Assembly (NCBI GenBank): GCA_951406725.2
Contig: OX597818.1
Coordinates: 73,780,001 to 73,844,000, forward strand
DNA length: 64,000 nt
Direction: 5' to 3'
DNA from: Octopus vulgaris
Taxonomy: Eukaryota
Below the pieces are notes generated by a model. The model had not been told where the DNA came from and did no database searches. It was given only the letters and a program-made list of their open reading frames with translations. Position 1 is the stretch's first letter. The number at the start of each line of letters is the position of its first letter. The position numbers were made by a program, and so were the translations under genes. Shown here in pieces: positions 10,196-61,261 of the stretch.

Positions 10196-10446
10196 TCAGT
10201 TAAAATACATTGGCATCGAATTGGAACTTGACGTAGCGGTCTCCAGTTGAAGAAAGTTTGCTCTTTATGCCAATATTACTGTTGTGGTCCAGTCTTCAGC
10301 AAATATTGATCAGCATTGTCATTTTCTTATATTCTCAGAGGTTCACATCGTGATGTTCTCAGAGATATGGTAGTCCAGCTGATTAGGAGTAATATTACAG
10401 GCACACAGATACATACGCATGCATATATATATATATATATATATAT

Positions 10447-13128
10447 AGCAATAATAATTCTCTAAAAGGGATATAGACAGTAACTGCTCGATAACATAAG
10501 GGACTAAAGCCATCTGAATATGGCTAGGGACAGGGCAGGGTGGTGGGGGTGTTACTGTTGCATTTAGCCCCAGGCGAACATCGACGTCACCAGAAAGGCT
10601 CGACACCGTCACGGTGCCCTAAACCTGCAAAGGGAGGTAATTCCCCGATGAAGCGGAAACCACACACGGACCATGGTTTCAAGGTGTATTGCCTATCATC
10701 GGCGTGTGGTAGGCCTCCGCTTCCTCGACGAATTCTCACTATGCAGGATTTCTTATATAGATTTTCAAGCAAAATACATTTGCTGATTTCGAAAATCTGT
10801 TCGAAAGCAATAATAATTCTCTAAAAGGGATATAGACAGTAACTGCTCGATAACATAAGGGACTAAAGCCATCTGAATATGGCTAGGGACAGGGCAGGGT
10901 GGTGGGGGTGTTACTGTTGCATTTAGCCCCAGGCGAACATCGACGTCACCAGAAAGGCTCGACACCGTCACGGTGCCCTAAACCTGCAAAGGGAGGTAAT
11001 TCCCCGATGAAGCGGAAACCACACACGGACCATGGTTTCAAGGTGTATTGCCTATCATCGGCGTGTGGTAGGCCTCCGCTTCCTCGACGAATTCTCACTA
11101 TGCAGGATTTCTTATATAGATTTTCGAGCAAAATACATTTGCTGATTTCGAAAATCTGTTCGAAAGCAATAATAATTCTCTAAAAGGGATATAGACAGTA
11201 ACTGCTCGATAACATAAGGGACTAAAGCCATCTGAATATGGCTAGGGACAGGGCAGGGTGGTGGGGGTGTTACTGTTGCATTTAGCCCCAGGCGAACATC
11301 GACGTCACCAGAAAGGCTCGACACCGTCACGGTGCCCTAAACCTGCAAAGGGAGGTAATTCCCCGATGAAGCGGAAACCACACACGGACCATGGTTTCAA
11401 GGTGTATTGCCTATCATCGGCGTGTGGTAGGCCTCCGCTTCCTCGACGAATTCTCACTATGCAGGATTTCTTATATAGATTTTCAAGCAAAATACATTTG
11501 CTGATTTCGAAAATCTGTTCGAAAGCAATAATAATTCTCTAAAAGGGATATAGACAGTAACTGCTCGATAACATAAGGGACTAAAGCCATCTGAATATGG
11601 CTAGGGACAGGGCAGGGTGGTGGGGGTGTTACTGTTGCATTTAGCCCCAGGCGAACATCGACGTCACCAGAAAGGCTCGACACCGTCACGGTGCCCTAAA
11701 CCTGCAAAGGGAGGTAATTCCCCGATGAAGCGGAAACCACACACGGACCATGGTTTCAAGGTGTATTGCCTATCATCGGCGTGTGGTAGGCCTCCGCTTC
11801 CTCGACGAATTCTCACTATGCAGGATTTCTTATATAGATTTTCGAGCAAAATACATTTGCTGATTTCGAAAATCTGTTCGAAAGCAATAATAATTCTCTA
11901 AAAGGGATATAGACAGTAACTGCTCGATAACATAAGGGACTAAAGCCATCTGAATATGGCTAGGGACAGGGCAGGGTGGTGGGGGTGTTACTGTTGCATT
12001 TAGCCCCAGGCGAACATCGACGTCACCAGAAAGGCTCGACACCGTCACGGTGCCCTAAACCTGCAAAGGGAGGTAATTCCCCGATGAAGCGGAAACCACA
12101 CACGGACCATGGTTTCAAGGTGTATTGCCTATCATCGGCGTGTGGTAGGCCTCCGCTTCCTCGACGAATTCTCACTATGCAGGATTTCTTATATAGATTT
12201 TCAAGCAAAATACATTTGCTGATTTCGAAAATCTGTTCGAAAGCAATAATAATTCTCTAAAAGGGATATAGACAGTAACTGCTCGATAACATAAGGGACT
12301 AAAGCCATCTGAATATGGCTAGGGACAGGGCAGGGTGGTGGGGGTGTTACTGTTGCATTTAGCCCCAGGCGAACATCGACGTCACCAGAAAGGCTCGACA
12401 CCGTCACGGTGCCCTAAACCTGCAAAGGGAGGTAATTCCCCGATGAAGCGGAAACCACACACGGACCATGGTTTCAAGGTGTATTGCCTATCATCGGCGT
12501 GTGGTAGGCCTCCGCTTCCTCGACGAATTCTCACTATGCAGGATTTCTTATATAGATTTTCAAGCAAAATACATTTGCTGATTTCGAAAATCTGTTCGAA
12601 AGCAATAATAATTCTCTAAAAGGGATATAGACAGTAACTGCTCGATAACATAAGGGACTAAAGCCATCTGAATATGGCTAGGGACAGGGCAGGGTGGTGG
12701 GGGTGTTACTGTTGCATTTAGCCCCAGGCGAACATCGACGTCACCAGAAAGGCTCGACACCGTCACGGTGCCCTAAACCTGCAAAGGGAGGTAATTCCCC
12801 GATGAAGCGGAAACCACACACGGACCATGGTTTCAAGGTGTATTGCCTATCATCGGCGTGTGGTAGGCCTCCGCTTCCTCGACGAATTCTCACTATGCAG
12901 GATTTCTTATATAGATTTTCAAGCAAAATACATTTGCTGATTTCGAAAATCTGTTCGAAAGCAATAATAATTCTCTAAAAGGGATATAGACAGTAACTGC
13001 TCGATAACATAAGGGACTAAAGCCATCTGAATATGGCTAGGGACAGGGCAGGGTGGTGGGGGTGTTACTGTTGCATTTAGCCCCAGGCGAACATCGACGT
13101 CACCAGAAAGGCTCGACACCGTCACGGT
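10447..13128 (-). repeat. Tandem array, 7 full + 1 partial copies of a 359 bp hammerhead-containing unit (retrozyme-like)
   Basis: Units start at 10447, 10806, 11165, 11524, 11883, 12242, 12601 and 12960. They appear identical except one A/G site (G at 11126 and 11844). Left flank is (TA)n. Confidence 0.97.
10659..10710 (-). ncRNA. Type I hammerhead ribozyme (variant core CCGAUGA), repeated every 359 bp, 7 copies
   Basis: Minus strand: accacacg CCGATGA t-agg-caataca-cct-t GAAA CCATGG TC cgtgtgtggt. Stem I cacacg/cgtgtg is extended by gaagcgga/tccgcttc, and stem III is the palindrome CCATGG. Predicted cut after GUC, between 10669 and 10668. Confidence 0.8.
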
Positions 13129-13272
13129 ACCTCCCTTTGCAGGTTTAGGGCACCGTGACGGTGTCGAGCCTTTCTGGTGACGTCGATGTTCGCCTGGGGC
13201 TAAATGCAACAGTAACACCCCCACCACCCTGCCCTGTCCCTAGCCATATTCAGATGGCTTTAGTCCCTTATG

Positions 13273-13276
<4 letters not shown>
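13128..13276 (+). repeat. Inverted partial copy of the 359 bp unit capping the array
   Basis: 149 bp reverse complement of unit positions 10491-10639, followed by (TA)n. Confidence 0.95.
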
Positions 13277-13317
<41 letters not shown>

Positions 13318-13436
13318 AATCAAGGAACGGCCATAATAGGCCATTCACCCACTAGAAATAACAGCCAAAGCTTCAACCGCAAAATAACATTAATTCCGTA
13401 AACCAGGAGAAAATTAAAAAAACATTTACCCTGTAA

Positions 13437-13541
13437 TTTCTTATACGATGCACCGTTTCATCTACTGTTTAATGGTAAACTAACCTGATTAAATTAAATC
13501 AAGCCAATCTTCCATAGGCCCTTAGATTCGTCAGTAAGAAA
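13437..13541 (-). ncRNA. Inverted copy of the 13836-13940 hammerhead
   Basis: Reverse complement lying within the left arm of the fold-back. Confidence 0.88.
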
Positions 13542-13835
13542 TAGCCAGATCGGAACAGATATTTTCACGAGGCATTTCTGTCCCTGCCTCGGCAATATCT
13601 GACCTAAAATTTTTCCCACTAGGCCGCTGGTGGCAAAAAAATTCTACAAAATTTTTTGCCACCCTATATTGATTAATTATGAATTTTCTGGTTAATTCCG
13701 TAATGGAATCGGCGGCTTATATTTATTTGCTGCCGATAAATTTGGCGCGAGTGCGATGATTTGAAAATTTTAGGTCAGATATTGCCGAGGCAGGGACAGA
13801 AATGCCTCGTGAAAATATCTGTTCCGATCTGGCTA

Positions 13836-13940
13836 TTTCTTACTGACGAATCTAAGGGCCTATGGAAGATTGGCTTGATTTAATTTAATCAGGTTAGTTT
13901 ACCATTAAACAGTAGATGAAACGGTGCATCGTATAAGAAA
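13836..13940 (+). ncRNA. Type I hammerhead ribozyme, canonical core
   Basis: tttctta CTGACGA atcta...(long insert)...tagat GAAA CGGTGCATCG TA taagaaa: 7 bp stem I, 5 bp stem II base, near-palindromic stem III, GUA cut after 13933. Confidence 0.9.
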
Positions 13941-14161
13941 TTACAGGGTAAATGTTTTTTTAATTTTCTTCTGGTTTACGGAATTAATGTTATTTTGCGG
14001 TTGAAGCTTTGGCTGTTATTTCTAGTGGGTGAATAGCCTATTATGGCCGTTCCGTGATTGTGATGTTGAACTTAAAAATGGTCTTTGACTATTTAATTTT
14101 TTCCCACTAGGCCGCTGGTGGCAAAAAAAATTCTACAAAATTTTTTGCCACCCTATATTGA

Positions 14162-14233
<72 letters not shown>

Positions 14234-18512: not shown

Positions 18513-20035
18513 ACTTAACTTAGAATAACTTAGAAAGCTTTTGGCCAGTACTGGCCCAGGCCATGTCTAACTTAATAGCACCACCTGGCGAAGTATTTCA
18601 ATTCAGGATTTGGGCACCGAGGCCCATTCGAGCAGAGAGTTATTGTTTGCGGAGACATATCCGGGTGTGGGTGGTTTGTCCGGGACTGTTTGAAGGAATT
18701 TTTCCAAAGACTTCTTGAATTTTGTTAGGTCAGTTTCTGTTTTGACGTGTCCTGGTGTAATGTTGAAGAGAGCGGGTCCAGTTGAGGTGAAATAATTGTG
18801 CCGTATTGTCGTTATGTGATGCGATTTAGATTTTTGTTGTGGACGGATGGCACGGGTCCAAGCCTTGGATGTATTTTGAAGGTGATGCCAACATCATTCG
18901 GACAGTGCTGATGGAATATGTTCCACATCATACAGATAATGTAGCGTTCACGTCGCCGTTGGAGTGAATACAGTTTCAGCTTCTCTAGTCTACCCCAGTA
19001 GTCAAGGTCTGACATGCCATCTATCTTTTCTGTGATTAACCTTTGGGGAGCTTCAATTCTCATAATATTTTGTTTTGTGTAGGGAGACCACAGTGGACAG
19101 CGGTATTCGAGGTGGGGTCGGGCAAAAGTGAAGAAGAGAAGGATAATAGTGTGGGAATCTCTCGACTGGAAGGTTCTGAGAATCCAGGAACACATTCTGC
19201 GGGCCATGTCAACTTTGCTGCTTATATCTGTAGCCCAGCTTATGTTATTGTCCACTGTTACTCCCAAGTCTCTGATGTTGTTGGACGCCATGAGAATTTC
19301 TCCAGAAGGAAGGGAGTATGGGAGTTTCAGAGCGTCCTCCCTTCCAAAGTGGATCAGTTCGATTTGTCTTCGTTTAGCAACATGTTGTTCTTTTCCGCCT
19401 ATTGGACAACAGCCAGTAGGTCTGACTGAAGGCTTATTCGGCCATCCACGCCATTGATGACCTTCTGGAGCTTGGAATCATCAGCAATAGTTCTGATGTT
19501 ACTGTGTTTGATGGTGTCAGTAATATCATTTATGTAGATGATGAAGAGAAGTGGGCCCAACACAGTGCCTTGTGGAACACCACTGCTGACTTTGGCTGGG
19601 CTGGATTTGACTCCTTCGACTACAACATGTTGGCTTCTGTTAGACAGGAAGCACTTGATCCACTGCAGCAGCTTTCCAGTGACACCAATATTGGACAGCT
19701 TTCTCAAAAGGATCTCATGATCAACCCTGTCAAAGGCCTTGCTGAAATCAAGGTAGATGACATCAGTGTTGGAACCCTCTCCCAAGGCTCTCAAAATGTC
19801 ATCAAAATGATGCAGTAGCTGCGTCAGGCAATCTCTTCCATTACGGAATCCATGCTGGTTGGAGTTCAGCATATTATGACTTTCAAGGAAGTGAGTCATA
19901 CGCGATCTCAGCACTCTCTCAAATACTTTAATGATATGAGAGGTGAGTGAGATTGGACGGTAATTCACGGCAAGCGATTTGTTTCCTTTTTTGAAAACTG
20001 GGACAACAGACTGGGATAGAAGGTCTTGTGGTATT
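18512..20035 (-). mobile_element. 5'-truncated CR1/L2-group LINE (RT domain + 3' end)
   Basis: NYRPISLTS..KVFER, QHGFRNGRDCLTQL, YLDFSKAFDRVDH, GVPQGTVLGPLLFIIYIND, IADDSKL, RDLGV, RPHLEY..PLWSP; frameshifts; short (ttctaag/ttaag) repeat tail; (TA)n flanks. Confidence 0.92.
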
Positions 20036-20058
20036 GTATATATCTATATATATATATA

Positions 20059-22599: not shown

Positions 22600-22795
22600 A
22601 TTGAGAACCACTTGCCATCACCAACCACTGATGACCGGTCAATACCCAAAAACTCGGGTCCGTGTGTATCACGTCAGGTTGGAGATGGGAAAGATGACTT
22701 CCATTTGCCAATACTGAAAGGGCACAGAGAGTGTGTCAATAGCCAGCTAGAGGAAATGTCTCCATGGGGCTACAAGCTACAGTAGCATCACATTT
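22600..22795 (+). mobile_element. Diverged single relative of the 359 bp unit, degenerate hammerhead plus downstream domain
   Basis: cca CTGATGA ccggtcaataccc AAAAA CTCGGG TC cgtgtgt, then gacttccatttgc...agggcac...gtgtc...tggggcta..gctacagtagca, colinear with the array minus strand. Confidence 0.7.
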
Positions 22796-36499: not shown

Positions 36500-36505
<6 letters not shown>

Positions 36506-36978
36506 TGATTAATTAATGATTTTTTGGCTAATTCTGAAATTAAATCAGCAGTTTATATATGCTGCTGAGAAGTTGGCGCGGTGACGGTAGATTTTGAAAA
36601 TTTAGAATATATATTCTCGAGGCGTCGATGCTGTCGCCTCGTGGATATATATTTCCCTGGCTTCTTTGCTGACGATACAGGCCAGTGGCAAATAGATATA
36701 ATTTAATTTAATTTAATCGGTTTTCCAATATGTATGTCTAAACTATGCATAGTCCAAAAATGATAAGGGTAAATGTTTTTATTTTCCTTTGGTTTCTGAA
36801 TTACAACTATTTAGCGGTTTGAGTTTAGCTGCTCTTTCTAGCGGATCGAATGGCCTATCAAGGCCATTCCTTAATATTGTTGAATGTATATTATATAGTC
36901 TGTTGACTATTTTTTCTTTCTCACTGGACCGCTGGTAGCAAAAAATTTCTCTTGAATTTTTTGCTATCCTGATATTGA

Positions 36979-36985
<7 letters not shown>
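36500..36985 (+). mobile_element. Diverged unit-length copy of the 488 bp hammerhead family
   Basis: Colinear with 13670-14169 (ttggcgcg, tgaaaattt, cgaggc...gcctcgtg, gggtaaatgttttt, ccgctggt.gcaaaaaa, tattgattaat). Hammerhead at 36663-36760: tctttg CTGACGA...TAAA CTATGCATAG TC caaaaa. (TA)n on both sides. Confidence 0.85.
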
Positions 36986-58490: not shown

Positions 58491-58609
58491 AACACACACA
58501 CACATACACACACACATACACGCACACACACACGTACGCACAGACACGTGCACACACACACATAACTACGCGAAGCTGTTTGTTGGCTACATAGAGGTAC
58601 AAATATTTT

Positions 58610-60335
58610 CATGATTCACTGGTCCCAATCACGAACTATACGATCATTATATTGATGGCTGTATCGGTGTGACCTCGCTCTCCCTGGAAAAACTAGTCTC
58701 CGTTCTCTCTTTTGTCCAATCTTTCCATTCTGCCCTTGAATTCTTCTGCACCGTTTCCAACACTTCTGTCACCTTTCTCGACATTTCGGTCAACATACAC
58801 AACTCCGCTCTCACTACCTTTATCCACTACAAACAAAGCGACTCACATTCATACCTTCACTTCTCCTCCTCATAACCTACCCACACCAAGCTTTCTATCC
58901 CCTAATCCGGATTCCTCCGTCTATGCAGGCTCTGCAATGACAACCATGACTTTGTAACTCAGTCTCAACTCATGGCTCACAATTTCATCCTTCGTGGATA
59001 TCTCCTCACCACTACCCGTACCGCCATTCCCAGAGCAAGTTCCGTGGACCATGAAACTGCTCTTTCTTCTCACACTCACCCGGCCGTTGCCCGTCTCCCA
59101 TTTTCCCTCACCTACTACCCCTCCACCTTGCCCCTCCAACGCACCATTCCGAGCCTTCTGGCGACTCAAGTCCGAAACCTCAACTTCGTACATTTTCCAC
59201 AACCTACCACTTCTCTCCTTCAAACGAACCCACAACCTATAAGACATCATGGCACACAATTTTTTCCCTAATCCCACCTCCCAGCTTGGCTCGTTCCTCT
59301 GCTCGCACCCACGCTGCAGCACTCCTCCTCACAAGTACCCATCGTCCCTCTCCTGTTCTTTCCATTCTTCTCTGAACGTCAGTCAAGCAGGACGTCCCTT
59401 GGCTGACTAGTTCGCGGAGCACCTCCGAGACATTAGACTCGGCAATGACGCCCCAGTCTTGCGCCATTTCCGCTCTACCTGTCATTAATTGCAACACCTG
59501 TCTGTGTTCAGATTGTCTTTGAACAGGTGCCATCCGGAACCCCCTTCGCCGTGAACAGGAAATAATCTTCTCTCTTCGCTCCTTTGTGTCACATGGACTC
59601 CACTGCCCTCCCCCTTCATCTGACTCCCCTCCTCTCCTTCCTTCATCTCACACCTTTTTCTCTTCGCTCTTACCCACTCTCTCCTTTCATCGATACCCAC
59701 TCCATCCATACCCCACCCCTACATCCTACACCCACATCCCCCATTCCTACGCCCACATACTCACCCCAAACCTACATCCCACCTCACATCCTACACCCAA
59801 ACCTCACATCACCAAATCCCACACTCACATCCCCACACACCAACAAAGCCACATCAAACCACACACCAACACACCACCACACCACATCACACCACTCCGC
59901 ACACACTAGGACTAACCGTTTCCCAGCAACCAGTGCATAAACCACATACCCACACATTACAGACGCACGCACACACATACATGCACATTCACACGTCAAA
60001 GTCACCAGCCCCTCTCCTTCGGCACACACTCATATATACATATATACATTTATATATACATATATAACCCTTCGGGTTGGGCTCACCAGTACATCAATAT
60101 CACCCCTTTTTCCTAACTCTTCTGTCTAACTACTTTTGTCCAACCAGTTGCCATGGTTGACCGTTAGATCCAAACTTTTCATTGTTTATTCTCTCTGTTT
60201 ATTTCCTCGTGTTCCTTTCTGTTGAAGACCGTAGGATTGAAACGTAAAATATTTTGTCCCCTTCTCAAACATTAAACTAATACACCTGCTTCTTGTTTAC
60301 CTATATTCGTCGTTTGTTTTTCTTTTGGAAATTTC

Positions 60336-61198: not shown

Positions 61199-61261
61199 AG
61201 ATAACCGAAGAGATGATGATGTGGATTTCCACCTCAGCATCCGAAACTCAGAGTTTTATCT
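61199..61261 (+). ncRNA. Hammerhead ribozyme with CCGAAGA core variant
   Basis: agataa CCGAAGA gatg.tga.gtgg-attt-ccac.tca.catc c GAAA CTCAGAG TT ttatct. Confidence 0.65.

Follow-up and report, generated by a model that had tools for sequence, protein, structure and literature searches.

A dispersed 359-nt hammerhead repeat family of Octopus vulgaris with two fixed insertion ends, likely mobilised by PLE-type priming

The window, that is, the whole 64,000-nt stretch of Octopus vulgaris DNA analysed here, contains a tandem array of a 359-nt unit that is a member of a young dispersed repeat family, whose two-armed insertions carry two different, fixed outer ends. This family is likely mobilised by PLE-type priming from both target strands with the protein acting in trans, a reading to which we assign a probability of roughly three in four, and the junction evidence for PLE-type two-strand priming is unusually clean. 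The family offers hundreds of readable insertion junctions, a rule that pairs one end of each type (A and B, below), variants amplified across both arms, and near-identical intact PLE ORFs in the same genome. In the literature, the enzyme that moves animal retrozymes and the status of circles as a true transposition intermediate are described as open (PMC7761336; 10.64898/2026.07.22.740005), as is the way in which PLEs produce tandem and inverted copies (10.1101/2021.04.23.441226).

Anatomy of the window array and its predicted hammerhead

TRF delimited an array at 10447-13128 (period 359, 7.5 copies, 99%). This array, arm A of the insertion, comprises seven full 359-nt units followed by a partial unit of 169 nt; its hammerhead-sense RNA corresponds to the minus strand, and its outer end is unit position 1 (putative start site A). 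The unit has a GC content of about 46%, and the seven full copies differ only at unit position 321, which is G in units 2 and 4 (plus-strand positions 11126 and 11844) and A in the rest; across the assembly, this variant was found in these two units only. At 13128, unit position 169 meets position 193 with one shared base, within the junction hot spot of the family (160-195), and the plus-strand arm B begins, a 149-nt segment (13128-13276) that is the exact reverse complement of unit positions 45-193, runs from 193 to 45, carries no hammerhead and has putative start site B as its outer end. Sites A and B are separated by a 44-nt "tail" (10447-10490, minus strand) that is present at one end of the insertion only. 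(TA)n repeats lie at 10423-10447 and 13274-13314. The target remnants proper are taken as 10423-10446 and 13277-13312, the latter being common to an adjoining insertion of a second hammerhead repeat family. The 7.5 near-identical 359-bp units, the 149-bp inverted copy and the TA repeats on both sides that the first-pass annotation had described were all borne out by this analysis.

A coding role for the unit was considered and rejected, as the longest ATG ORFs of the circularised unit are 35 aa (sense) and 58 aa (antisense), and no ORF combining RT and GIY-YIG domains was found in the unit or the array.

Several other elements were observed in the window. The adjoining array (13313-14166) is an insertion of a second tandem family with a 490-nt unit and 701 candidate places, in which a hammerhead-like motif with a long stem II was read by eye near 13836-13940. 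Its layout is also two-armed, with fixed ends 105 nt apart, one of each being present in 4/4 two-armed loci seen whole, and a diverged older copy (68-79%) lies at 36503-36983. A reverse-transcriptase fragment, likely from a LINE, occupies 18812-20043 of the minus strand (RVT_1, E=4.7e-26 for 19399-20040), and at 58567-59400 there is a PLE-like reading frame in decay, interrupted by several stops and showing 25-27% identity to the PLE proteins. Solitary hammerhead-like motifs are located at 61204 (plus strand) and 33250 (minus strand), the former recurring at other loci.

The first-pass annotation had also placed a minus-strand type I hammerhead in each unit. By consensus match and folding, this motif is present in 7/7 full units at 359-nt spacing, and it is absent from the partial unit and from the inverted arm. 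In unit 1, the minimal motif spans 10663-10708 (minus strand), with stem I formed by 10708-10703 and 10668-10663, the core CCGAUGA at 10702-10696, stem II at 10695-10681, GAA at 10680-10678 and a palindromic 8-nt stem III at 10677-10670. This assignment of stems and core puts the predicted cut at 10669/10668, the same position as proposed before. The core is a U4C variant. On the plus strand, a core-like match at 10645 was rejected as a hammerhead, because stem II would not fit there and the match corresponds to the complement of the long stem I. Rfam reported no hammerhead at its gathering score in the window, and up to E=10 it returned only microsatellite-driven miRNA matches in 10400-11200; the hammerhead call therefore rests on consensus matching, folding and variant patterns.

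Folding of the circular minus-strand monomer gave a z-score of -5.0 against 100 shuffles (-2.4 for the plus strand). For two natural adjacent units, the double-hammerhead fold (-166.4 kcal/mol) is 16 kcal/mol better than two single hammerheads (-150.4 kcal/mol) and lies 4.8 kcal/mol above the free minimum (-171.2 kcal/mol). The cross-unit stems I and III have a pairing probability of about 0.9; part of the core is mispaired in the free fold, where stem II as drawn has a probability of 0.03. Cleavage as dimers had been suggested earlier, and dimer-type folding is supported computationally by the double-hammerhead fold and the cross-unit stems, as a predicted fold; in this model, the stem III palindrome would be needed only in the dimer. 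The palindrome is retained in 5 loci of older subfamilies with a double change from CAUG to CUAG. Also in older subfamilies, UU replaces CC at core positions 3-4 in 8 loci, and G8 is replaced by A in 3 loci (one of which, L170, also has U3), these core and stem III variants representing few independent events. Pair counting on 8 sequences gave covariation that comes from one sister sequence and is too thin to use. U4C has been reported to reduce activity in vitro while permitting viroid infectivity (PMC3088659), and 8/9 predicted retrozyme dimers of Xenopus failed to cleave (10.64898/2026.07.22.740005). Self-cleavage of the hammerhead of the 359-nt family is given here as a prediction.

Two fixed ends across a dispersed family

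We searched the assembly from which the window derives (2.8 Gb, 227 contigs) for the 359-nt unit and obtained 255 matches among the 40 of 640 candidates that were scored, many at 100% identity. Exact patterns in which TA is joined to unit position 1 (site A) occur 438 times, and those joined to position 45 (site B) 531 times, versus 0 for control patterns. These counts, together with the fold z-score, show that the array is not a chance pattern. We then analysed 120 loci, namely the window and 39 others picked by identity, 44 picked as A/B pairs and 36 picked by one end (the first 36 of 75 single ends). Several subfamilies are present, with 40 variants common to at least 3 loci.

On two contigs and the first 70 Mb of a third (C1, C2 and C3), where 79 A ends and 100 B ends were listed, 49/49 convergent end pairs within 12 kb combine A with B. 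The 120 loci contain 98 two-armed junctions, of which 90 are A+B, none A+A and none B+B, the remaining 8 having one end untyped because of rearrangement or truncation. The same combination was found in 28/30 and 20/24 junctions of the two locus sets that had not been picked for both ends, and TA repeats abut 58/66 outer ends in the set not picked by ends. Target duplications of 12 nt, both outside microsatellites, were detected at 2/14 loci examined (L052 and L069). We infer that both outer ends are priming sites, because the tail of a PLE spans in vitro two RT start sites and both target strands are extended.

That the array might be an ordinary local satellite or an assembly artefact deserves mention, as near-perfect repeats and palindromes are prone to misassembly and the copy number at the window locus comes from the assembly alone. 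This explanation is nevertheless barely credible, given that hundreds of loci across the genome share the two ends, differ in arm length and show locus-specific variants and target duplications.

Arms are mostly short, with 86/146 stopping inside the first unit, and the longest reach up to 15 units. Centre junctions are scattered over the whole unit and have 0-4 shared bases in 52/90 cases; a hot spot at 160-195, beside a small palindrome, holds 47 junctions versus 21.8 expected. Near-mirror centres occur at 12/62 loci versus 3.9 expected, and the lengths of the two arms are correlated (rho 0.69). Arms of equal length (offset +44) were looked for and not seen, the excess being at offset 0 and only among arms of at most one unit.

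These features bear on the origin of the inverted arm, which the first-pass annotation had called a "fold-back cap". Such an arm would be a self-primed fold-back of the first cDNA, with a single end primed by the target, and fold-back has been suggested as the origin of inverted junctions in PLEs (PMC3846280). It would account for private variants common to both arms (see below), for the near-mirror centres and for a hot spot beside a palindrome; fold-back or later symmetrical deletion could also yield the near-mirror centres together with the correlated arm lengths. However, the two outer ends of an insertion are fixed and never alike, either arm may exceed the other by more than one unit (A in 14/90 cases and B in 18/90), single-armed copies begin at site A or at site B, and the order of variants is unmirrored in L146 and L154. 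We thus consider fold-back quite improbable; the A+B junctions (90/98) favour reading the inverted segment as a second arm, primed on its own from a fixed position.

An older sister family (L199-L218, and 22658-22787 in the window) was also observed, with a 355-nt unit, about 71% identity over unit positions 1-191 and 2030 candidate places. It has the same two ends and a hammerhead core of UUGACAA (U3/A8).

The template copied into the arms

Arms read through the predicted cut position 356 times, whereas 5/213 arm ends fall at 219-225, where 3.8 are expected. No excess of arm ends at the cut was thus found among 213 ends (p=0.33), so the genome provides no proof of cleavage in vivo; as there is no stop at the cut, RT would meet no 5' end there. 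The first-pass annotation had taken the fact that neither array end lies at the cut as an argument for rolling-circle reverse transcription. This observation does not discriminate, as two fixed putative start sites within the unit determine where the insertion ends. The same holds for PLEs, whose dominant in vitro template is the uncleaved RNA (PMC11167929).

Sequence variants were more informative. Arms within one locus differ by 0.35% versus 2.3% between loci (87 loci). Substitutions private to one locus number 149: 108 are confined to a single unit, 17 occupy all units that cover the site, 14 of these being in both arms, 9 are mosaic, and 15 lie at sites that only one unit covers. Two of the 17 were searched genome-wide: the variant of L060 gave 13 matches, all in L060 and in both arms (13/13), and the variant of L057 gave 10 exact matches, all in L057 and again in both arms. 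Unit-wide private variants imply a bottleneck of one unit followed by amplification into both arms, both of which a monomer circle would supply directly; alternatively, the variants could have come from a source array that was lost or escaped sampling, or have spread by later expansion and conversion. On the other hand, mosaicism recurs in 8/58 loci with at least 4 unit pieces, and mosaic variants, including the 9 private ones, cannot be made by one monomer circle. The window array, with its variant in units 2 and 4, belongs to this class: it does not fit a pure monomer circle and requires either that the template was multimeric or that two units were duplicated later. The earlier proposal of a rolling-circle or monomer template therefore gains from the unit-wide variants at other loci and loses at the very array for which it was made.

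Block duplication or a multimeric template explains mosaic arrays simply, the window array included, and PLE-type priming could accordingly act on an uncleaved linear multimer, with homogeneous long arrays arising by later expansion or conversion at the DNA level and the circle playing no part. The U4C core and the competing fold also speak for this alternative. Against it, genome-unique variants occupy all units of both inverted arms, as at L060, with no source array in the assembly, and array length is not correlated with the load of private mutations (rho 0.11, n=80), so that long arrays do not look older. We regard the linear multimer as rather unlikely.

A pool of cleaved linear monomers, with RT jumping from the 5' end to the 3' end and so imitating a circle, would cover both homogeneous arrays (one RNA re-used) and mosaic arrays (a jump to another RNA). 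At L174 (304-1876; C1:70528252-70531252), a 359-nt-family arm starting from site B stops at position 221, beside the predicted cut, and is followed immediately by an inverted 490-nt-family arm, whose start is the other site of that family. Jumping between monomers would accommodate this fusion, which reflects either the copying of two distinct RNAs into a single insertion or the loss of DNA between adjacent insertions. A pool of linear monomers is improbable as the template, given the lack of an excess of arm ends at the cut (5 stops versus 356 read-throughs) and of any recurring insertion there in the list of most frequent variants from the first 40 loci. A foreign block at L044 also spans the cut without a switch.

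This block (L044:3294-4004), the third unit of both arms, comes from another subfamily; it could stem from a trimeric template, from a start unit common to both arms or from mirror copying.

Sequence records were also inspected. Parts of the stretch are contained in 20 sequence-record rows from 11 studies, none of which is on record as RNA. Contigs from 4 runs (4 studies) cover the complete unit and run on from its end into its start, a configuration that a tandem array or a circle would give alike. Two single contigs are noted as leads only. One terminates at 10729 in adaptor-like letters that we take to be a cDNA template-switch adaptor, in the orientation of the hammerhead-sense strand; the other departs from the unit sequence at 10670, which is 2 nt from the predicted cut.

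Taken together, the case for a circle as the usual template of the 359-nt family is evenly balanced, and for the window array the likelihood of a circle is lower than for the family at large. In the mechanism that we propose, the hammerhead-sense strand would be transcribed as a multimer in which adjacent hammerheads, as in the computed fold, could form a double hammerhead and release 359-nt monomers that host ligases could circularise. The PLE protein would make a nick in each strand of a TA-rich target, the two being some 12 nt apart, as the two 12-nt duplications suggest. Site A would serve one DNA end for priming and site B the other; the pairing of ends is observed, and the priming is modelled on the in vitro behaviour of a PLE. 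Both cDNAs would pass the cut position unstopped and extend over as many as 15 units. Their template would most likely have no ends; it may be a monomer circle for homogeneous arrays and a multimer, or later unit shuffling, for mosaic ones such as that of the window. The cDNA ends would then be joined centrally by repair, with little or no shared sequence at most of the junctions observed.

We propose more tentatively, at somewhat less than even odds, that one PLE dimer on a single hammerhead-derived 359-nt RNA circle primes from the two cut strands of a (TA)n target, with one active site at each of the two fixed positions, and produces two inverted multi-unit arms per event, the insertions then being a record of rolling-circle retrotransposition. 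If true, this would link animal retrozyme circles directly to PLE enzymes, and the tail and inverted-repeat architecture of PLEs would be explained as coupled two-site priming.

Candidate PLE helpers and comparison with known systems

We searched the genome for GIY-YIG domains and obtained 148 matches among the 150 of 6136 candidates that were scored. A first PLE family encodes a 765-aa RT+GIY-YIG ORF, preceded by a 466-aa ORF without a Pfam match, and its linker, CxxxxCxxC, is the motif described for Neptune/Nematis (Craig preprint, 10.1101/2021.04.23.441226). In 19 loci mapped, its copies end at either of two points 40 nt apart, followed by TA, and the inverted insertion L105 has one of each end. 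A second RT+GIY-YIG family has a 775-aa open frame that is identical in protein sequence (100%) across 110/110 scored hits. The core of its hammerhead begins with CCGA, like that of the 359-nt unit, and its two fixed ends lie 30 nt apart, one of each being present in the inverted insertion L115. Both intact families (L100-L114, L115 and L234-L263) are very young and lie in (TA)n. No homology between the 359-nt unit and PLE pLTRs was detected in 79 PLE-bearing loci or in local alignments compared with shuffles, and the family has no assignment to a named PLE. These loci represent only a small part of the 6136 and 18487 candidate PLE places, so that a homologous helper may exist; the sole unit match among these loci is a separate sister-family insertion, and none of 25 unpaired arms is joined to a PLE ORF. 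The two intact families, neither of which shares sequence with the unit, are candidate helpers. The question of circle versus multimer and the coupling of start sites are now testable with the 359-nt RNA and the 765-aa protein.

At the level of sequence, the 359-nt family falls within the definition of a non-LTR retrozyme, of which it appears to be a new family, and it seems to behave like a non-autonomous PLE rather than an autonomous one; the kinship with retrozymes and PLEs noted earlier is supported computationally. As in metazoan non-LTR retrozymes (PMC7229834; PMC7761336; 10.64898/2026.07.22.740005), the units are tandem, non-coding, within 150-450 nt (350-390 nt in mussel retrozymes) and below 50% GC, with one type I hammerhead per unit, target duplications of more than 4 nt and co-occurring PLEs. 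Stem III is short and palindromic, like that of amphibian retrozymes and PLE pLTRs, whereas most invertebrate retrozymes are described with a stable helix III, and the U4C core also sets the family apart from the metazoan non-LTR retrozymes described in these sources. Retrozyme repeats are reported to contain no motif indicating a helper (PMC7761336), and their mobilisation by PLEs and the synthesis of multi-unit cDNA from circles are published hypotheses (PMC7761336; 10.64898/2026.07.22.740005). We found no description of two-armed retrozyme insertions with two fixed start sites in PMC7229834, PMC7761336 and 10.64898/2026.07.22.740005, and none of two fixed start sites or the A+B rule in a retrozyme in the literature searched, although supplements may list this family or similar ends. 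The words "hammerhead", "ribozyme" and "retrozyme" are absent from the main text of the repeat annotation of one octopus species (PMC13282606).

Canonical PLE insertions carry an inverted 5'-truncated copy and a one-sided tail of 30-40 bp (10.1101/2021.04.23.441226; PMC3846280). The 359-nt family resembles them in its inverted arm, one-ended tail, (TA)n target (a bias of Neptune-type elements) and minimal hammerhead; its tail of 44 nt is slightly longer, and its 12-nt target duplications are close to the 8-10 nt of rotifer PLEs (10.1101/2021.04.23.441226; PMC3846280). Unlike canonical PLEs, it has no ORF, each of its arms repeats a single small unit in tandem (up to 15 units), and homology to the sampled PLE pLTRs is undetectable.

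Similarities also exist to the Poseidon PLE of Anolis, in which the tail was found in vitro to be the stretch between two internal RT start sites, with both strands cut and extended, and whose protein is a predicted dimer (PMC11167929). Both systems have two adjacent internal RT start sites, putative in the 359-nt family, downstream of the hammerhead, and an AT-rich target. In the bulk assay of the Anolis element, no difference in start site was seen between strands (PMC11167929), whereas the 359-nt family uses one site per end with no exception among typed pairs. Such strict partition would point to coupling within one complex. In L1 twin priming, both target strands prime, which leaves an internal inversion with a microhomology centre, and the second site is variable, so that the two cDNAs copy different parts of one RNA. 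The 359-nt family shares with it the apparent priming of two strands and the inversion, and differs in that its second site does not vary and the same unit positions are copied into each arm.
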